Counted from the first letter of the stretch, positions 4,395 to 59,476 are shown. The stretch is 64,000 nucleotides of DNA from Escherichia coli (GCF_044647545.1 NZ_CP172818.1), one strand, 5' to 3'. Notes: generated from the sequence alone by a model not told the origin. Numbers and translations are program-made.

Positions 4395-5147
4395 TTACTT
4401 CGCTTTACCCTGGTTCGCAACGGCTGCTGCTTTCGCCGCGATCTCATCAGCATTACCCAGATAATAGCGTTTCAGCGGTTTGAAGTTCTCGTCAAACTCA
4501 TAAACCAGCGGCACGCCGGTCGGGATATTCAGCTCAAGAATCTCTTCTTCGCTCATGTTATCGAGATATTTCACCAGCGCACGTAACGAGTTACCGTGTG
4601 CAGCGATGATGACGCGCTCACCGCTCTTCATACGCGGCAGAATGGTTTCATTCCAGTAAGGGATCACGCGGTCAATGGTCAGCGCCAGGCTTTCCGTCAG
4701 TGGCAGCTCTTTCTCGCTCAGTTTCGCGTAACGCGGATCGTGACCCGGATAACGCTCATCATCTTTAGTCAGTTCCGGCGGAGTCACCGCAAAACCACGA
4801 CGCCACTGTTTCACCTGCTCGTCGCCATACTTTTCAGCGGTTTCCGCTTTGTTCAGACCCTGCAATGCACCGTAGTGACGTTCGTTCAGTTTCCAGGATT
4901 TCTCAACGGGCAGCCATGCCTGATCCAGTTCGTCCAGCACATTCCATAGGGTATGAATAGCGCGTTTCAGCACAGAGGTGTAAGCAAAGTCAAAGCTGTA
5001 ACCTTCCTCTTTCAGCAGCTTACCTGCTGCTTTTGCTTCGCTTACGCCTTTCTCAGACAGATCCACGTCGTACCAACCGGTGAAACGGTTTTCTTTGTTC
5101 CACTGACTTTCGCCATGACGAACCAGAACCAGCTTAGTTACAGCCAT
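4395..5147 (-). CDS. gpmA: 2,3-bisphosphoglycerate-dependent phosphoglycerate mutase
   Basis: Start chosen at [17 protein letters not shown] (RHG catalytic motif) with GGAG RBS upstream; longer ORF to 5162 is an N-terminal extension. Confidence 0.93.
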
Positions 5148-5171
5148 ATACTTACTCCTCAAATCATCTTT

Positions 5172-5192
5172 TAATGATAATAATTCTCATTA
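5172..5192 (-). promoter_or_regulatory. Fur-box-like site in gpmA promoter
   Basis: aatgataataattctcattat immediately upstream of gpmA start resembles the Fur consensus GATAATGATAATCATTATC. Confidence 0.5.
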
Positions 5193-5349
5193 TATTGCCG
5201 TGACGAAGCAACAGCAATGCTTACGCATAACCATAGCGAAAATAGTGTCGCAGTGTAAGGTTGTTGTGAATATTGAGTTGCAAATATGTCGGTGTTTGCT
5301 GGTGATTTGAACAATATGAGGATAAAGCCCTCATGACGAGGGCTTAACA

Positions 5350-18311: not shown

Positions 18312-19364
18312 ATGAAAAAAATACCCTGCGTGATGATGCGAGGTGGAACCTCGAGGGGCGCGTTCCTGTTAGCGGAACATCTACCCGAAGATCAAACGCA
18401 GCGCGATAAAATATTGATGGCAATTATGGGTTCCGGTAACGATCTGGAAATTGACGGTATTGGCGGCGGTAATCCGCTGACCAGTAAAGTCGCCATTATT
18501 AGCCGCTCCAGCGATCCGCGTGCAGATGTCGATTATCTGTTTGCTCAAGTTATCGTCCATGAGCAACGTGTCGATACCACGCCTAACTGCGGCAATATGC
18601 TGTCTGGCGTTGGGGCATTCGCCATTGAAAATGGTTTGATTGCAGCGACTTCGCCAGTTACCCGCGTACGTATCCGCAACGTCAATACGGGTACGTTCAT
18701 CGAAGCTGATGTGCAAACGCCAAATGGTGTTGTCGAGTACGAGGGTAGCGCCAGAATTGACGGCGTACCGGGTACTGCCGCACCGGTTGCGCTCACTTTC
18801 CTGAATGCCGCCGGAACCAAAACCGGAAAAGTCTTCCCGACGGATAATCAGATTGATTATTTTGACGATGTGCCGGTGACCTGTATCGATATGGCGATGC
18901 CAGTTGTCATTATTCCTGCTGAATATCTGGGAAAAACAGGCTATGAATTACCGGCAGAGCTGGATGCCGACAAAGCATTATTAGCCCGCATTGAATCTAT
19001 CCGTCTACAAGCGGGTAAAGCAATGGGCTTAGGCGATGTCAGTAATATGGTTATCCCTAAACCTGTACTTATTTCTCCAGCGCAGAAAGGCGGGGCAATT
19101 AATGTGCGTTATTTTATGCCGCATTCTTGCCATCGCGCTTTGGCGATAACCGGTGCTATTGCTATTTCCAGTAGTTGTGCATTGGAAGGCACCGTCACCC
19201 GACAAATCGTCCCTTCTGTAGGATACGGCAATATCAATATTGAACACCCCAGTGGTGCGCTCGACGTTCATTTAAGTAATGAAGGTCAGGATGCCACGAC
19301 GTTACGCGCATCTGTTATTCGGACGACCAGAAAAATATTTTCCGGTGAAGTTTATCTTCCCTGA
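18312..19364 (+). CDS. ybhH: PrpF/2-methylaconitate isomerase-family protein
   Basis: 350-aa ORF starting MKKIPCVMMRGGTSRG, the N-terminus typical of PrpF-family isomerases; RBS upstream. Confidence 0.88.
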   Translation: MKKIPCVMMRGGTSRGAFLLAEHLPEDQTQRDKILMAIMGSGNDLEIDGIGGGNPLTSKVAIISRSSDPRADVDYLFAQVIVHEQRVDTTPNCGNMLSGVGAFAIENGLIAATSPVTRVRIRNVNTGTFIEADVQTPNGVVEYEGSARIDGVPGTAAPVALTFLNAAGTKTGKVFPTDNQIDYFDDVPVTCIDMAMPVVIIPAEYLGKTGYELPAELDADKALLARIESIRLQAGKAMGLGDVSNMVIPKPVLISPAQKGGAINVRYFMPHSCHRALAITGAIAISSSCALEGTVTRQIVPSVGYGNINIEHPSGALDVHLSNEGQDATTLRASVIRTTRKIFSGEVYLP

Positions 19365-19439
19365 AAAATTTTGTTGTCGTGATAATGACAATCAATAAAG
19401 GAATTCTGTATGAGTCATACAGAAAGAACAGGATATTAA

Positions 19440-20873
19440 ATGAATAAGAAATCGTTATGGAAGCTAATTCTGATATTAGCAATCCCATGTATTATTGGCT
19501 TTATGCCAGCTCCAGCAGGATTAAGCGAACTGGCGTGGGTGCTTTTTGGTATTTACCTGGCGGCCATTGTGGGGCTGGTTATCAAGCCTTTCCCGGAACC
19601 TGTCGTACTGTTAATTGCCGTCGCCGCATCGATGGTAGTGGTGGGTAACTTATCAGGTGGGGAATTTAAAACCACCGCTGTATTAAGCGGTTACTCTTCC
19701 GGTACCACCTGGCTGGTGTTTTCTGCGTTTACTTTAAGCGCCGCGTTTGTAACCACAGGCTTAGGTAAACGTATTGCCTATCTGCTGATTGGTAAAATTG
19801 GTAGCACTACCCTGGGTCTGGGTTACGTTACGGTATTTCTCGATCTGGTACTGGCTCCGGCAACACCGTCTAACACCGCGCGTGCGGGCGGCATCGTGTT
19901 ACCGATCATCAACAGCGTGGCAGTGGCTTTGGGATCAGAACCGGAAAAAAGTCCGCGTCGTGTTGGACATTACCTGATGATGTCCATTTACATGGTCACC
20001 AAAACCACCAGCTATATGTTCTTTACCGCAATGGCGGGGAACATTCTGGCGCTGAAAATGATCAACGACATTCTGCACCTGCAAATTAGCTGGGGTGGAT
20101 GGGCGCTAGCCGCCGGATTGCCTGGCATCATTATGCTGCTGGTCACCCCGCTGGTGATTTACACCATGTATCCGCCAGAAATTAAGAAGGTGGATAACAA
20201 AACCATCGCCAAAGCGGGCCTTGCCGAACTGGGACCGATGAAAATCCGCGAAAAAATGCTGCTCGGTGTCTTCGTGCTGGCGCTGCTGGGCTGGATTTTC
20301 AGTAAGTCACTGGGGGTTGATGAATCCACCGTGGCAATCGTTGTTATGGCGACTATGCTGCTGCTGGGTATCGTTACCTGGGAAGACGTGGTTAAAAATA
20401 AAGGCGGCTGGAATACCTTAATCTGGTACGGCGGTATTATCGGCTTAAGCTCCTTATTATCGAAAGTTAAATTCTTCGAATGGTTAGCTGAAGTCTTTAA
20501 AAATAACCTGGCATTTGATGGTCACGGTAACGTTGCTTTCTTCGTTATTATTTTCCTCAGCATCATCGTGCGTTATTTCTTCGCTTCCGGTAGTGCCTAT
20601 ATCGTTGCCATGTTACCGGTATTTGCCATGCTGGCGAACGTCTCCGGCGCGCCGTTAATGTTAACCGCGCTGGCACTGTTGTTCTCTAACTCCTATGGCG
20701 GCATGGTTACTCACTATGGCGGCGCGGCAGGTCCGGTCATCTTTGGCGTGGGTTACAACGATATTAAATCCTGGTGGTTGGTCGGTGCGGTACTGACGAT
20801 ATTAACCTTCCTGGTGCATATCACCCTCGGCGTGTGGTGGTGGAATATGCTGATCGGCTGGAACATGCTGTAA
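19440..20873 (+). CDS. ybhI: DASS-family (divalent anion:Na+ symporter-like) transporter
   Basis: 477-aa polytopic membrane ORF directly downstream of ybhH on the same strand. Confidence 0.9.
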   Translation: MNKKSLWKLILILAIPCIIGFMPAPAGLSELAWVLFGIYLAAIVGLVIKPFPEPVVLLIAVAASMVVVGNLSGGEFKTTAVLSGYSSGTTWLVFSAFTLSAAFVTTGLGKRIAYLLIGKIGSTTLGLGYVTVFLDLVLAPATPSNTARAGGIVLPIINSVAVALGSEPEKSPRRVGHYLMMSIYMVTKTTSYMFFTAMAGNILALKMINDILHLQISWGGWALAAGLPGIIMLLVTPLVIYTMYPPEIKKVDNKTIAKAGLAELGPMKIREKMLLGVFVLALLGWIFSKSLGVDESTVAIVVMATMLLLGIVTWEDVVKNKGGWNTLIWYGGIIGLSSLLSKVKFFEWLAEVFKNNLAFDGHGNVAFFVIIFLSIIVRYFFASGSAYIVAMLPVFAMLANVSGAPLMLTALALLFSNSYGGMVTHYGGAAGPVIFGVGYNDIKSWWLVGAVLTILTFLVHITLGVWWWNMLIGWNML

Positions 20874-34134: not shown

Positions 34135-34277
34135 CTAGTATCGGCTTAACCACTAAACACTCTAGCCTCTGCACCTGGGTCAACTGATACGGTGCTTTGG
34201 CCGTGACAATGCTCGTAAAGATTGCCACCAGGGCGAAGGAAGAAATGACTTCGCCTCCCGTATCTGGAAAGGTGTAC
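34135..34277 (+). promoter_or_regulatory. moaA leader RNA: molybdenum-cofactor (Moco) riboswitch region
   Basis: Structured leader directly upstream of moaA containing CGCCUCCC and GGAAAGG near the RBS; assigned from knowledge of the E. coli moaA leader; boundaries approximate. Confidence 0.6.
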
Positions 34278-35267
34278 ATGGCTTCACAACTGACTGATGC
34301 ATTTGCGCGTAAGTTTTACTACTTGCGCCTGTCGATTACCGATGTGTGTAACTTTCGTTGCACCTACTGCCTGCCGGATGGCTACAAACCGAGCGGCGTC
34401 ACCAATAAAGGCTTTCTTACCGTCGATGAAATTCGCCGGGTTACGCGCGCCTTCGCCAGTCTTGGCACCGAAAAAGTCCGTCTGACGGGCGGTGAGCCAT
34501 CTTTACGCCGCGACTTTACCGATATCATCGCCGCTGTGCGAGAAAACGACGCTATCCGCCAGATTGCGGTCACCACCAATGGTTACCGTCTGGAACGCGA
34601 TGTGGCGAACTGGCGCGATGCTGGACTTACTGGCATCAACGTCAGCGTTGATAGCCTTGACGCTCGCCAGTTTCATGCCATTACCGGGCAGGATAAATTC
34701 AACCAGGTCATGGCAGGGATCGATGCTGCATTTGAGGCCGGTTTTGAGAAGGTCAAAGTCAATACCGTGCTGATGCGTGATGTTAATCATCATCAGCTCG
34801 ACACCTTTCTGAACTGGATCCAGCATCGCCCTATCCAGCTGCGTTTCATCGAATTGATGGAAACGGGCGAGGGCAGCGAGCTCTTCCGTAAGCATCACAT
34901 CTCTGGTCAGGTTCTGCGGGACGAGCTACTGCGTCGCGGCTGGATCCACCAATTACGTCAACGCAGCGACGGTCCCGCGCAAGTCTTTTGTCATCCGGAT
35001 TACGCCGGAGAGATTGGCCTTATCATGCCGTATGAAAAAGACTTCTGCGCCACTTGCAACCGCCTGCGCGTTTCCTCCATTGGTAAACTCCATCTCTGCC
35101 TGTTTGGTGAAGGCGGCGTTAACCTGCGCGATCTGCTGGAAGACGATACCCAGCAACAGGCGCTGGAAGCGCGTATTTCAGCGGCGCTGCGGGAGAAAAA
35201 ACAGACCCATTTCCTGCATCAAAACAACACCGGTATTACGCAAAACTTATCGTACATTGGTGGCTAA
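34278..35267 (+). CDS. moaA: GTP 3',8-cyclase (radical SAM)
   Basis: Start chosen at [31 protein letters not shown] (radical-SAM cysteines); the upstream in-frame extension is the leader RNA. Confidence 0.95.
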
Positions 35268-49475: not shown

Positions 49476-49622
<147 letters not shown>

Positions 49623-54699: not shown

Positions 54700-54809
54700 A
54701 AACAAGGGTAACATAGGATCAATGAGGGTTAGAGCATATGCGTCTGTCGGCAAACAGACAGGGAAATACTTGTGCTGAACGTAGCGTAACCGCCTGATTA
54801 GCATACGAA

Positions 54810-55070
54810 TTACTTATAAATTACCGCAGTACCGCTTAATTTATTGTTGTTGGTGGCAGAAGTGATGCTGTATCCACTGGCACCGGCCGCCGCGGCTTTC
54901 TCAGCCAGTTTCGCTTCCAGGGCATCGAGGGTGGATGCGCCATCGGCAGAAACCACGCCGATTTTATTCATGTTCTGTGCCTGGGATGCCGTTACCGGTT
55001 CCGCCGCGAACACGCCAAATGACAGAGTTGAAAGAGCCATAGCAGCAACAACAGTATTGATAGTTTTCAT
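54810..55070 (-). CDS. ybiJ: DUF1471 (YhcN-family) periplasmic small protein
   Basis: 86-aa ORF with signal peptide; paralogous to McbA (shared ...DLE.KLAEKA... and GTA(V/I)IYK motifs). Confidence 0.9.
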   Translation of the reverse strand: MKTINTVVAAMALSTLSFGVFAAEPVTASQAQNMNKIGVVSADGASTLDALEAKLAEKAAAAGASGYSITSATNNNKLSGTAVIYK

Positions 55071-55334
55071 AATTAATCTCTCGCAGGTGATTTTTGTATA
55101 AGTGACGTTGTTTCGTCGATGTGATGAGTATCACGTTTTTTTACGAGAGATAAAATCGAAGAGAATTGACCGCCTTGTTCAAATAAATTGATTGATATCT
55201 AACATACTGATAAACCATTTATTTGTTGTACTTATGGACTTGTTTTATACCGCGTGGCAGTCACGGTAGCGTTAAAGGCACGGAATGCCACGCAAAATAC
55301 AAATTATACTCGCTATACATCCCGCCAGTTGTAG

Positions 55335-55601
55335 TTAACGTAACTGGCTGTCTTTCGAACCTCTGCGATTATATCCTGTATAAGCTGGTTTTTGTAAATC
55401 TTTCTCCTGCTGACAATGAATGCATAAGCGCACGCCAGGAATGGCTTCCCGACGGGCCTGCGGGATAGGGGCACCGCACTCTTCACATTCATACAGGCTT
55501 TCGCCATGCGGAATTTCACCCCGAGCGCGGGCAATCGCATCTTCAATTGTACTGTTGATCTGTTCGTTGACGGCGTCATCATTAGCCCAACCGGATGCCA
55601 T
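55335..55601 (-). CDS. ybiI: DksA/TraR-family C4 zinc-finger protein
   Basis: 88-aa ORF with CEECGAPIPQARREAIPGVRLCIHCQ (CxxC-N17-CxxC). Confidence 0.9.
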   Translation of the reverse strand: MASGWANDDAVNEQINSTIEDAIARARGEIPHGESLYECEECGAPIPQARREAIPGVRLCIHCQQEKDLQKPAYTGYNRRGSKDSQLR

Positions 55602-55674
55602 ATCGTCCTCCCCATATCAATGCTTGTACAGCTAAGTGTAGCTAATATAGGGACGAACTCGGGCAGTTCAAGCG

Positions 55675-56352
55675 TCAGATCTCCGACCATTCCCGCAGCA
55701 GATTATGATAAAGATTGAGCAGCGACAGGATCTCTTCACTTTCGCCATGGCGGCTTTTCAGCGACTGAATATTGGTGTCCAGTTCGAACAGCATGGCGCG
55801 CTTTTTATCATCGCGGATCATCGACTGGATCCACATAAATGATGCCACCCGTACGCCACGGGTTACGGGTGTCACGCAGTGCAGGCTGCTGGAAGGGTAC
55901 AACACCAGATCGCCTGCCGGGAGTTTTACCCGATGTTGCCCGAAGGTGTCATTAACGACCAGTTCGCCGCCGTCGTAGCTTTCTGGATCGCTTAAAAACA
56001 GCGTGGCAGAAAGGTCAGTGCGCATCCAGCCGTTTTGTGGATGGCTGCGTACTGCGCCATCCACATGGAAACCATAGGTTTCATTGTTCTGATAGCGATT
56101 AAACAGCGGCGTGGAAAGGGTACGCGGCAAGGCCGCGGCAAAGAACAAAGCATGTTGATTAACCGCGTTCAGCACCTCATTTTGCAGGGCGGCGTATAAC
56201 GTGCTGCGGGTGTCTACCTGTTGATTGTTCTTAACTTGCGCACCTTGTGCGCCGGTGGTGACGCGTCCATCCACCCATTCGGCTTGTTCCAGTTGTTCGC
56301 GAAACCGGGCGACGTCCTTTGGCGATAGCACGCCGGGAATGTGGTACATCAT
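55675..56352 (-). CDS. ybiX: Fe(II)/2-oxoglutarate-dependent oxygenase (PKHD-type hydroxylase)
   Basis: Start chosen at [11 protein letters not shown] (225 aa); HxD motif (FHVDGA) ; directly downstream of fiu. Confidence 0.9.
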
Positions 56353-56393
56353 ACAAGTTCTCCAAAAAATGGGGCCTGCGCCCCACATCTGAA

Positions 56394-58676
56394 TCAGAAA
56401 TGCATATTGGCCGTGAGCAAGAAGGTTCTTGGCTCGCCCGGGTGATAACGGTAGCCGCTCTTGTTGATTGAGGCGACGTAATCGGTATCAAACAGGTTGT
56501 AGACGTTTAGCTGGAAGTCGAGATTGCGATTAACCCGATACCCCAGTTTAGCGTCGGCGACCCAATAACCTTCGGTAAACGCTGGCGTTCCCACCGCGCC
56601 GTCAGAACCTTTATGCATACTGCCGATATACCGTGCGCCCGCACCAACGGAAATATCATCGGTTGCCTGATATTGGCTCCATAAGGTAAAGGCGTGCTCC
56701 GGCGTATAGGGCAGCGATGAGGAACCATCTTGGGCAACATCTTTGCCGTTTTTGATGGTTGCTTTTTGCTGGGTATAGCCGCCAATCACCTGCCACGCGG
56801 GAGTGATATTCCCGGCCACGGATATCTCATAGCCTTCGACGCGTTTCTTACCGTATTGCGAGTAAGTTCCGTCATCATTTTGCTCAACTTCATTTTCGAT
56901 ATCAGTACGGAACAGCGCGGCGGTGAGCAACAGGCGTTTATCCAGAACCTGCCATTTGGTGCCAATCTCGCTGGTGTTGGCTTTTTGCGGTTTAAAATCG
57001 GTGCGGTTGGCACTGTTACCGCTGCCAGACTGCGCAAGGGCGAAGTTGTTGCCGCCCGGCGGCTGCTGGGAAACGGCATAGTTAATATAGACATTGCCGT
57101 TTTCCGTCAGGTGATACAGCGCCCCGGCTTTCCAGTTCACCAGATTGCCCGACTTGGCGGTATCGACGGTGGTGACCGGAGAACCTTTTGCCACGCCAGC
57201 AGGGCAGGTGATGGCACCGCGTCCGCTGCCGCCGCAGGCGGTGGCACTGTCATATTCAGTATGATAATTATCCAGACGGATCCCGCCGTTCAGCTCAAAA
57301 TCACGGGTGATTTGCAGCGTATCGAAGGCGTAAATTGCGAAGGTATCCGTCTGACCATTGGCGTTTGCGCCGTTGCGCGTCAGGCCGCCGGGATGAATGC
57401 TGCTGTCAGGATGATAAATATTTACCGCAGGTAACGTCACCGGATTAACGCCGTAGTTAGTCTGCGTTTCACGGGTAAATTCCACGCCGGTACTGACATC
57501 ATGACCGATAGAACCGGTATAGAACGTCGAGGTCAGGTTGGTCTGGTTGGTGAGAATTTTATTACTCACATCTTTAGTATTCGCCGTGCGTGACCAGGTC
57601 CAGCTATTCACATCGCTGGTGGGCTGGGTAATATTCGACGCCCCGCCCATAATCGCCGTCATCAGGTAATCCTGCTTCACGCGCGACCAACGGGTAGTAT
57701 TGCGAATGGTGGTGTTATCGTTGATGTCGTGCTCAAAACGCATGGTAGCGGTGTCGGTGGTCGAATCGTCGTAATCGGAATCCGTGCCGTAAAAGTTATG
57801 CGTATCAACTTTTCCGGAATGATTCAGGGCCGCCGTTCCCGCAGATGGGGCAGAATAACCCGGTAAACCGATGGTCGGAATGCCGCCGTCTGGCGTGTTG
57901 TGCTGGGTGACATGCAGATAATTAAGATACAAACGATTCGCTGTACCAAGGCCAAAAGCGACAGAAGGGGCGACGCCGTAACGCTCATTTTTGACTTTGT
58001 CGCGTCCGGCATCGTGCGTTTTTTCGCCCATCACGTTCAGGCGCACCGCAGTGGTATCACCAATGACCTGATTGACGTCCAGCGTGCCGCGGCGGAACCA
58101 GGCGCTGCCAATACTCGCGGAGGCGTCAATGCCCGAATCATTGCGCGGCTGCTTGCTGATCATATTGATCGAGCCCGTCGGCGCGCTGCGCCCGTAGTCG
58201 GTGCCGGACGGCCCTTTAATTACTTCGACCTGCTCGGTATTGAAGGTGTCGCGCGAGACGCTGCCGATATCGCGAATGCCATCAATATAAATACTGTTAG
58301 AAGTATCGGCACCGCGCATATAAATGGCGTCGCCAGTGGTGGAGTTACCGTTCTCACCCGCAAAAAACGCACCCACGCCGGGGACGTTTTTGAGCGCGTC
58401 GGTAAGGTTGGTTGCGCCCTGATCTTTAATCACTTGTTCAGAAATCACCGTCATCGTGCGGGTAGTATCCGCTACCGGACGCGAGAATTTCGGATCGGCA
58501 GATTGTTGTGGCGCATAAAGCGAAGGCGTTGATGCTTCGACAACCAGCGTGTCATCCGCGTTAGTTTGCCCTTCGGCGGCGAGAGCCTGAGCCACAGGCG
58601 TGATGCCAATACAAAGACCGGCAAAGAACGTGAGCGAATGAAATTGTCTGGCAGGGAAATTGCGATTGTTTTCCAT
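56394..58676 (-). CDS. fiu: TonB-dependent catecholate siderophore receptor
   Basis: 760-aa ORF with signal peptide, TonB-box-like DTLVVEA, and C-terminal ...LTANMHF (terminal Phe); Fur-box-like AT-rich site upstream. Confidence 0.96.
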
Positions 58677-58780
58677 TTTGCAGGTGACTTTTTCTTATAT
58701 GTTGAAATTTTCACTGCCACGAGAAAGCATCTCTGCGGATGCGATGCCACTGTTAATCTCGTGATAGCGTTCGTGCAAGT

Positions 58781-58807
58781 GATAATAATTTTGATAAGCA
58801 TTATCAC
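58781..58807 (-). promoter_or_regulatory. Fur box(es) in fiu promoter
   Basis: gataataattttgataagcattatcac, overlapping GATAAT/CATTATC Fur hexamer arrays, about 105-130 nt upstream of fiu ATG. Confidence 0.65.
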
Positions 58808-58940
58808 TTAGCGCGATTTTCTATCACCCATTGCGCGAAAAAGAAATACATTTATTTACATTGCGTTCATATTTGATGTTTTTTGCTTACAAATCGGACG
58901 AAAACTGCATCCAGAGGCGAATGCAGTTACGTTGGTGGGG

Positions 58941-59201
58941 TTATTTGTAGATGATTGCAGTACCGAACATCTGGTCATTTCCGCCTGCGGAATTAATGAC
59001 ATAACCTTTCGCGCCTTGTTCGCGCGCTTTTTCTGCCAGTTTATCCTCCAGATCGCTTAGGTTTGATGCGCCAGTTGCCGAAACGGTACCGGCGGGCCGT
59101 AGCTGACCGCTGTCCAGGTTACTCATCGGTTGCGCGGCATAAGCCGTGAGAGAGATTCCGCTCAGGACGGTGGCAATCAGTAGTGTGAGGCACTTTTTCA
59201 T
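58941..59201 (-). CDS. mcbA: DUF1471 periplasmic protein McbA
   Basis: Start chosen at MKKCLTLLIATVLSGISLTAYA (86 aa); the longer ORF to 59345 is an upstream extension. Confidence 0.88.
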   Translation of the reverse strand: MKKCLTLLIATVLSGISLTAYAAQPMSNLDSGQLRPAGTVSATGASNLSDLEDKLAEKAREQGAKGYVINSAGGNDQMFGTAIIYK

Positions 59202-59476
59202 AATGACATCCTCATAAATACAACGGGTAGTGCCTGATAAGTGTAGGTCGCCTGGGCGATGAAAATGACGCAAAAAATTGACAGAGATGTGCTTGTTTTT
59301 TGAACGATATATTTTTACAAAACAAGACAAATCAATGATATGCATAATGCTGACTTTTATGATGAATTGCCATAAACCATAGCCATGTGAAGGTTTATAG
59401 AAATGATAAACGCAGCCAGATATTTACCCTGTCGCGTTATGCGGGTATCTTACGCCGCTGCTTAAAGGAGAATGCT

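Follow-up and report, generated by a model that had tools for sequence, protein, structure and literature searches.

The closest described relatives of the fiu-ybiX locus of Escherichia coli are the receptor-oxygenase gene pairs cciT-cciO of Caulobacter crescentus and piuA-piuC of Pseudomonas aeruginosa. Two 2025 papers in the Journal of Bacteriology present cciT-cciO as a Fur-regulated, widely co-conserved receptor-oxygenase module and name Fiu-YbiX and PiuA-PiuC as members (PMC12004947, PMC12004943); 87.7% of cciO homologs adjoin a cciT homolog (PMC12004943). The present analysis concerns the E. coli member as it stands in one stretch of 64,000 nucleotides (GCF_044647545.1 NZ_CP172818.1; hereafter the window), where fiu, ybiX and ybiI encode a catecholate siderophore receptor, an Fe(II)/2-oxoglutarate (2OG) oxygenase and a zinc-finger protein. 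The locus is almost certainly the fiu-ybiX operon already described in E. coli, and the ybiI that comes after it is separately promoted. Receptor, oxygenase and Fur control form a conserved unit; judged from gene neighborhoods, ybiI is not a conserved member of it. Both the locus and the receptor-oxygenase partnership are already known, and no new object is added here.

Like fiu-ybiX, the Caulobacter locus has a Fur-regulated receptor of the Fiu clade, a tandem oxygenase of the YbiX family, and between them a spacer that is structured or annotated with a small RNA (sRNA). It differs from the E. coli locus in having no ybiI-like gene, in a receptor that does not take up cefiderocol, and in a ligand presumed to be endogenous. 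The piu genes likewise encode a homologous, iron-regulated receptor and oxygenase, and lesions in either raise the minimum inhibitory concentrations (MICs) of siderophore beta-lactams. Unlike the tandem fiu-ybiX, however, they lie in two divergent operons, one of piuA-piuB and the other of piuC-piuE (PMC9426570, PMC5971595), which bring in the PepSY-type gene piuB and piuE and include no TraR-like gene. An earlier note, made from the sequence alone, had described the arrangement of the present locus as parallel to piuA-piuC; homology bears this out (YbiX is about 50% identical to PiuC), whereas the gene arrangement does not.

The operon and its candidate control elements are as follows.
58827-58822 (-35) and 58805-58800 (-10), minus strand: candidate fiu promoter, sigma-70-like GTGATA-16-GATAAT, a pattern match scoring 9/12 in a consensus scan
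58780-58807, minus strand: double Fur box GTGATAATGCTTATCAAAATTATTATCAC, two overlapping 19-mers plus two 7-1-7 motifs, covering the fiu -10
56394-58676, minus strand: fiu, TonB-dependent catecholate siderophore receptor, 760 aa (NCBIfam NF007349)
56364-56386, minus strand: terminator-like hairpin in the 41-nt fiu-ybiX spacer, with a 7-bp stem GUGGGGC/GCCCCAU, loop GCAG and U6
55675-56352, minus strand: ybiX, cytoplasmic Fe(II)/2OG oxygenase of the PKHD / PiuC / CciO family, 225 aa

Equivalog models of NCBIfam identify all three proteins well above cutoff (bits against cutoff: Fiu 1508/686, YbiX 514/399, YbiI 160.6/96), in agreement with the names and coordinates that the earlier note had assigned. 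Its spacing of 41 nt from the fiu stop to the ybiX start is also exact, with a GGAG Shine-Dalgarno sequence for ybiX at 56363-56360; 73 nt separate the ybiX stop from the ybiI start. Of 5426 complete E. coli genomes, 5417 contain the segment 55200-58950 (3.75 kb) at 95-100% identity, with fiu, ybiX and ybiI annotated there and the order mcbA-fiu-ybiX-ybiI-ybiJ unchanged. Compared with fiu-ybiX and ybiI of E. coli K-12 (RefSeq/PGAP, Fur-regulon literature), this is the same locus with strain-level differences only. In the clinical isolate E. coli ECONIH1 (NZ_CP009859.1 898000-903188), an IS4-family element interrupts an otherwise identical fiu, a natural case of receptor loss.

The strength of the pairing was examined in 80 loci with a ybiX homolog, one genome per species, drawn from Gamma-, Beta- and Alphaproteobacteria and one metagenome-assembled genome of Verrucomicrobia. 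The locus scan was built on 14 closer YbiX sequences, since an alignment of 45 was too diverse for that purpose. Enough upstream sequence was available at 75 of these loci; in 66 of them the gene directly upstream, on the same strand, encodes a Fiu-like receptor. Of 66 homologous loci, 32 have Fur-like 19-mers matching at 14/19 or better upstream of the receptor gene, whereas control windows have them in 2.7% of cases. Clustering of the genes directly downstream, under ORF (open reading frame) calling that is crude, especially in high-GC genomes, gave no family in more than 3 of 74 loci, which leaves the receptor as the sole conserved partner of the oxygenase.

Ahead of fiu, where the earlier note had seen a Fur-box-like array (58781-58807), a double box is present and stands well above shuffled expectation. 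Two overlapping 19-mers match the consensus GATAATGATAATCATTATC at 14/19 (58781-58799) and 15/19 (58787-58805), and two 7-1-7 motifs occupy 58780-58794, with 2 mismatches, and 58792-58806, with 1. A paired match was found in 0 of 2000 shuffles of the AT-rich 264-nt fiu-mcbA intergenic region, and any match of at least 15/19 in 5 of 2000. The predicted Fur site overlaps the candidate fiu -10 (GATAAT). Scans for sigma-70 promoters and for terminators were near chance overall (8 promoters against 6.0 expected, 9 terminators against 5.2), and only sites backed by both position and conservation were used from them.

In the window as a whole, 8 Fur matches reach 14/19 or more, where dinucleotide shuffles give 0.96 +/- 1.03. 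A strong Fur-box-like pair at 5170-5194, scoring 15/19 and 16/19 and including a 7-1-7 motif with 1 mismatch, lies directly upstream of the phosphoglycerate mutase gene gpmA (4395-5162, minus strand), which we take to be a known Fur target. A single Fur-box-like 19-mer (15/19), at 19381-19399, occupies the 75-nt spacer between ORFs at 18312-19364 and 19440-20873, both on the plus strand. The second of these encodes a membrane transporter; by position, the two are probably ybhH and ybhI.

Published data already establish much of the iron response. ChIP-exo (chromatin immunoprecipitation with exonuclease treatment) places fiu in the core Fur regulon; the Fur-1 iModulon takes in fiu, ybiX and ybiI alike (PMC10164565). 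A Fur operon listing includes fiu-ybiX and is accompanied by fiu-lacZ data on regulation by iron and Fur (PMC4676285), serum induces all three genes (PMC4145685), and the E. coli operon is said to include ybiX and ybiI (PMC12004943). Iron and Fur dependence, like the cefiderocol MICs of ybiX mutants considered below, had been proposed earlier as checks and is already in print. When iron is replete, Fur sits on the two overlapping boxes over the candidate fiu -10 and blocks transcription; here the binding comes from the literature and the site is confirmed in the window. When iron runs short, fiu is transcribed.

Fiu itself is a complete receptor, with plug and barrel. The NF007349 match spans residues 1-760 of 760 and TIGR01783 covers residues 70-760. 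A signal peptide occupies residues 1-33, and the mature chain of the solved Fiu structure 6BPM aligns full length to residues 34-760. A TonB box, DTLVVEA, at 41-47 and a C-terminal aromatic residue, F760, can be read from the sequence. Solved TonB-dependent siderophore receptors 5FOK, 5NEC and 5FP1, which we take to be PiuA and PiuD entries, are matched at E values of about 1e-94 to 1e-115. That Fiu transports Fe(III)-catecholates as well as catechol beta-lactams is credited to Nikaido and Rosenberg (1990), as that work is cited in PMC12004947. In the proposed pathway, Fiu would carry Fe(III)-catecholates and catechol-drug conjugates to the periplasm.

Between receptor and oxygenase genes, the 41-nt spacer folds at -23.2 kcal/mol (z = -2.56) into a hairpin with 5 GC pairs in its stem, and the U6 tract continues into the ybiX Shine-Dalgarno sequence. 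A near-identical hairpin is found in Kluyvera, Citrobacter, Pantoea and Mangrovibacter, one of unrelated sequence occupies the same position in Rosenbergiella, and the Pseudocitrobacter spacer has REP-like palindromes. The stem sequence thus varies among genera while the position stays. Many spacers, for example in Acinetobacter and Variovorax, are canonical stem and U-run terminators. An Rfam scan of 54700-59400, with E values up to 1 allowed, matched no known family of RNA, and the hairpin is therefore not a described element. From the predicted fold we infer partial termination or 3' stabilization of the receptor message at this site. Many fiu transcripts would end at, or gain stability from, the GC hairpin and U6, and the remainder would read through into ybiX and then ybiI, giving much receptor and little enzyme. 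In favor of this step, z falls below -2 in 41 of 57 folded receptor-oxygenase spacers, often with a U-run; against it, these z values come from shuffles that kept mononucleotide composition only, and the terminator or attenuator role is itself a prediction. Cefiderocol has selected an ISKpn8 insertion in the E. coli fiu-ybiX spacer (bioRxiv 2025.02.14.638246), which fits expression of ybiX depending on the fiu promoter.

YbiX has the Pfam domains 2OG-FeII_Oxy_3 and PKHD_C, that is, a double-stranded beta-helix fold joined to the PKHD_C helical domain. The HxD motif that had been read as a mark of an Fe(II)/2OG hydroxylase, FHVDGA, corresponds to F95-A100; the facial triad is H96-x-D98...H158, with R168 as the 2OG-binding residue. 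All four residues are invariant in 14 homologs (44-52% identity); among 45 homologs R168 remains invariant and each triad residue is at least 90% conserved. The N-terminus shows no signal-peptide-like segment, and Pfam detects no DNA- or RNA-binding domain. YbiX is 49-52% identical to Shewanella 3DKQ and P. aeruginosa PiuC (about 50% to structures 9GHL and 9QN0). The next fold neighbors are a Trichoplax prolyl hydroxylase (PHD) at 16.5 and the Pseudomonas putida prolyl hydroxylase (PPHD)/EF-Tu complex at 16.2, then OGFOD1 and Tpa1, and small-molecule enzymes follow at about 14. Compared with protein prolyl 4-hydroxylases (PHD2, TaPHD, P. putida PPHD/EF-Tu, OGFOD1/Tpa1), however, identity is only 13-23%, and YbiX adds the PKHD_C helical hairpin.

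The genetics of three organisms bears on what this enzyme does. In E. coli, the cefiderocol MIC is 0.5 mg/L for delta-cirA delta-ybiX against 0.12 mg/L for delta-cirA (bioRxiv 2025.02.14.638246), and a premature stop codon in ybiX makes cells resistant to a catechol-peptide nucleic acid conjugate (bioRxiv 2023.10.30.564798). In P. aeruginosa, piuC lesions give higher MICs of siderophore beta-lactams. In Caulobacter, CciT function strictly and specifically needs CciO; CciT protein is more abundant in delta-cciO (PMC12004947), so the delta-cciO defect is not one of expression. Since ybiX, piuC and cciO mutants act like receptor mutants, a requirement for the oxygenase in receptor-dependent uptake is shown by genetics. 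Cells without ybiX or piuC resist beta-lactams whose action is periplasmic, and cells without cciO lose receptor-dependent growth despite more receptor; the cytoplasmic enzyme is therefore needed for uptake itself, which a step lying purely downstream would not predict.

Three models have been offered for such an enzyme: it makes the ligand, removes an inhibitor, or oxidizes the ligand (PMC12004947). Our tentative preference, held with somewhat less than even confidence, is that YbiX oxidizes a small molecule of catechol type that would hinder the receptor if left as it is. YbiX lacks a signal peptide and its Fe(II)/2OG site is intact; it would make uptake through its cognate receptor productive by acting in the cytoplasm on either the imported ligand or an endogenous compound. 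Left unoxidized, the molecule would accumulate and block or compete at the receptor, so that oxidation would remove an inhibitor or pull the pathway.

The earlier note had suggested something different, that an imported catecholate or siderophore-drug conjugate is chemically processed after uptake. Spelled out as a model, YbiX would do this for iron release, detoxification or catabolism, with no role in uptake across the outer membrane. Receptor-enzyme gene pairs usually share a substrate, and a pairing kept in 66 of 75 loci speaks for such a link; the idea corresponds to Model 3 of PMC12004947 and to a PiuC proposal quoted in PMC12004943. Yet the targets of cefiderocol and BAL30072 are periplasmic, and ybiX and piuC mutants are resistant as receptor mutants are. 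A cytoplasmic enzyme without a signal peptide cannot reach such a drug first, and simple processing after uptake therefore cannot explain the resistance. Moreover, delta-cciO phenocopies delta-cciT in iron-limited growth (PMC12004947), no inner-membrane importer is conserved with the pair, and among the downstream genes no family occurs in more than 3 of 74 loci. Processing after entry is accordingly judged unlikely.

The fold of YbiX raises the main alternative to the preferred reading, that YbiX, PiuC and CciO are protein hydroxylases that modify the receptor precursor before export, or a dedicated partner, with the receptor inactive until modified. The Pfam domains and the nearest fold neighbors favor this role, it accounts for resistance to drugs acting in the periplasm, and among four Fur-regulated receptors only CciT needs CciO, being present but non-functional without it (PMC12004947). 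Against this, enhancement of growth by Fe-2,3-dihydroxybenzoic acid is independent of cciO (PMC12004947), the P. aeruginosa genes are divergently transcribed, and likeness of fold is a poor predictor of substrate class among 2OG oxygenases. We regard the option as distinctly unlikely. Also counted against it, no report of a hydroxylated residue is known to us for Fiu or its homologs among the solved structures (6BPM, 5FOK, 5NEC). The specific claim that these enzymes license their cognate TonB-dependent receptors, by hydroxylating a precursor or dedicated partner in the cytoplasm before export, is quite improbable. If true, it would mean that an outer-membrane transporter needs an oxygen-, iron- and 2OG-dependent post-translational mark; it would also explain the strict specificity for one receptor, the inactive but present receptor, the resistance to periplasm-acting drugs and the prolyl-hydroxylase-like fold.

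Several observations weigh against oxidation of a small catechol, the reading preferred here. No substrate is known for any family member, as the earlier note had said of YbiX and as PMC12004947 and PMC12004943 agree. The PiuC crystal entries up to April 2026 (released August 2025 and April 2026) hold 2OG/Fe, malate or 2,4-pyridinedicarboxylic acid, cofactor analogues with no substrate, and a literature search found no paper behind entries 9GHL and 9QN0-4 and no reported substrate. According to one Caulobacter study, neither Fe nor Cu transport depends on CciO (PMC12004943). The Keio delta-ybiX allele might alter fiu mRNA stability. Finally, the summary table of a P. aeruginosa paper reports reduced PiuA expression for a piuC frameshift, which points to regulation and conflicts with Caulobacter.

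That last report fits a regulatory view, in which YbiX is an Fe(II)/O2/2OG sensor feeding back on the amount of receptor, with no part in ligand chemistry. The effect on PiuA is not polar, since piuC is transcribed divergently; the nearest fold neighbors include oxygen-sensing PHDs, and fiu is regulated differently under aerobic and anaerobic conditions, independently of Fur (PMC4676285). However, both cciT mRNA and CciT protein rise rather than fall in delta-cciO, and the authors exclude an expression defect (PMC12004947). YbiX also has no domain for binding DNA or RNA. The sensor model is very unlikely. A simpler form, in which YbiX is needed for receptor expression, is contradicted by Caulobacter and was kept as a minor rival only.

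Taken whole, the preferred reading, which combines Fur control, attenuation in the spacer, oxidation of a small catechol by YbiX and a resident ybiI, is the best explanation we can offer; we would put its chance of being right in full at about even. The features that concern ybiI and the flanking genes are as follows.
55335-55601, minus strand: ybiI, TraR-like C4 zinc-finger protein, 88 aa (NCBIfam NF008243)
55634-55671, minus strand: ybiI promoter region, with -35 TTGAAC at 55671-55666 and -10 TATATT at 55649-55644, a scan match with a 16-nt spacer
55641-55634, minus strand: second sigma-S-like element CTACACTT, adjacent to TATATT, a candidate -10
58941-59201, minus strand: mcbA, DUF1471 paralog, 86 aa
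54810-55070, minus strand: ybiJ, DUF1471 paralog, 86 aa

The order on the minus strand is mcbA, fiu, ybiX, ybiI, ybiJ. The two DUF1471 paralogs, 46.5% identical, flank fiu-ybiX-ybiI on both sides in the same orientation. Enterobacter and Salmonella, in which ybiX is missing there, keep the same promoter elements upstream of their ybiI. A sigma-S promoter for ybiI is documented by chromatin immunoprecipitation sequencing, quantitative reverse-transcription PCR and KMnO4 footprinting (PMC4447067), and a peak for RpoS in a SELEX experiment lies in the ybiX-ybiI spacer (PMC5493296).

Across the survey, a YbiI relative occurs in only 3 of 80 loci, and a tblastn search of the ybiX loci for ybiI remnants (E up to 10) returned nothing beyond the three intact copies. 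Kluyvera (L003) has mcbA-fiu-ybiX-ybiJ, with neither ybiI nor a remnant; Salmonella (L082/L083) has rlmF-ybiI-ybiJ and Enterobacter kobei (L084/L085) mcbA-ybiI-ybiJ, neither with fiu-ybiX at that site. All three cases share the rlmF...ybiJ neighborhood, and the Salmonella and E. kobei proteins share about 80% identity with YbiI of E. coli. Enterobacter sites show the receptor-ybiX pair together with a resolvase gene (PF00239) as a 4.2-kb segment, present or absent as an indel, that stands in place of 58 bp at the empty site (L084 4878-4935 versus L088 1489-5685). Its right end lies 8 nt past the ybiX stop, and the ybiI promoter downstream is common to filled and empty sites. These comparisons suggest that the receptor-ybiX pair moves as a cassette. 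Given the separate promoter, the independent assortment and the filled and empty sites, fiu-ybiX behaves as a two-gene cassette upstream of a resident ybiI.

The earlier note had grouped the three genes. One rival reading makes them a functional unit of three components, with YbiI as a regulator or helper of the receptor-oxygenase pair. Covariation of ybiI with fiu and ybiX in the Fur-1 iModulon (PMC10164565), induction by serum (PMC4145685), the occurrence of the full triad in Klebsiella, Citrobacter and some Enterobacter, and a guess from gene position at a role in iron metabolism (Blankschien et al.) all lean that way. Against them stand the sigma-S promoter that ybiI has of its own (PMC4447067), its occurrence without fiu-ybiX in Salmonella and E. 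kobei and its absence beside fiu-ybiX in Kluyvera, the low count of YbiI relatives in the survey, and an indel that ends before the ybiI promoter. A three-component unit is thus highly improbable, and read-through best accounts for the response of E. coli ybiI to Fur. Of the earlier interpretation, the gene identities, Fur box, 2OG/Fe(II) motif, DksA/TraR-type finger and homology to PiuA-PiuC survive; a tandem piu arrangement and the membership of ybiI do not.

YbiI was rightly taken for a C4 zinc finger of the DksA type, with a CxxC-x17-CxxC ribbon (C39-x2-C42-x17-C60-x2-C63) and a match to PF01258 (zf-dskA_traR) at E = 4.6e-12. It has a nuclear magnetic resonance structure of its own (2KGO) and matches TraR (5W1S) at E = 2.6e-12 over residues 11-77. 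Two substitutions distinguish the protein of this strain from K-12 2KGO, H32 for R and Y37 for D, just ahead of the first zinc-binding cysteine pair. Among 104 enterobacterial orthologs, the N-terminus MASGWANDDAVNEQIN (MASGWANDDAV) and the C-terminal tail GYNRRGSKDSQLR are at least 95% conserved. Like TraR of the F plasmid and DksA, YbiI places its C4 zinc ribbon after an N-terminal helix; unlike them, it is chromosomal and sigma-S dependent, carries the extra conserved tail GYNRRGSKDSQLR, and has a tip out of register. The TraR residues in question are equivalent to the DksA tip that enters RNA polymerase through its secondary channel. The DxxDxA tip pattern is absent at the aligned positions, where YbiI has S3, A6 and D8 against D3, D6 and A8 of TraR, and the conserved D8-D9-A10 of YbiI lies two residues out of register. 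Overexpressed YbiI is reported, as "data not shown", to rescue the auxotrophy of delta-dksA (Blankschien et al.). YbiI would then be a resident, sigma-S-driven TraR-like factor, probably binding RNA polymerase, that in E. coli also receives Fur-dependent read-through. No clear intrinsic terminator follows the gene. A 9-bp inverted repeat, GCCAGTTGTAGTTAACGTAACTGGC, at 55324-55348 spans the ybiI stop and has no U-run on the ybiI strand.

Elsewhere in the window, a molybdenum cofactor riboswitch (Rfam RF01055, 103 bits) lies at 34146-34290 on the plus strand. An Rfam match to the sRNA ES036 (CssrF) at 49544-49586 on the minus strand scores 43.3 bits, just over the gathering score of 37.6.

For models of the receptor-oxygenase module, the implication is that ybiI should drop out. 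The terminator-like hairpin usual between receptor and oxygenase genes would imply a deliberately low ratio of enzyme to receptor. The locus points to a question recognized already and not advanced here, that of the service which a cytoplasmic Fe(II)/2OG oxygenase renders to a catecholate receptor in the outer membrane. This question carries clinical weight, since lesions in ybiX and piuC help bacteria to resist cefiderocol and other siderophore-drug conjugates.

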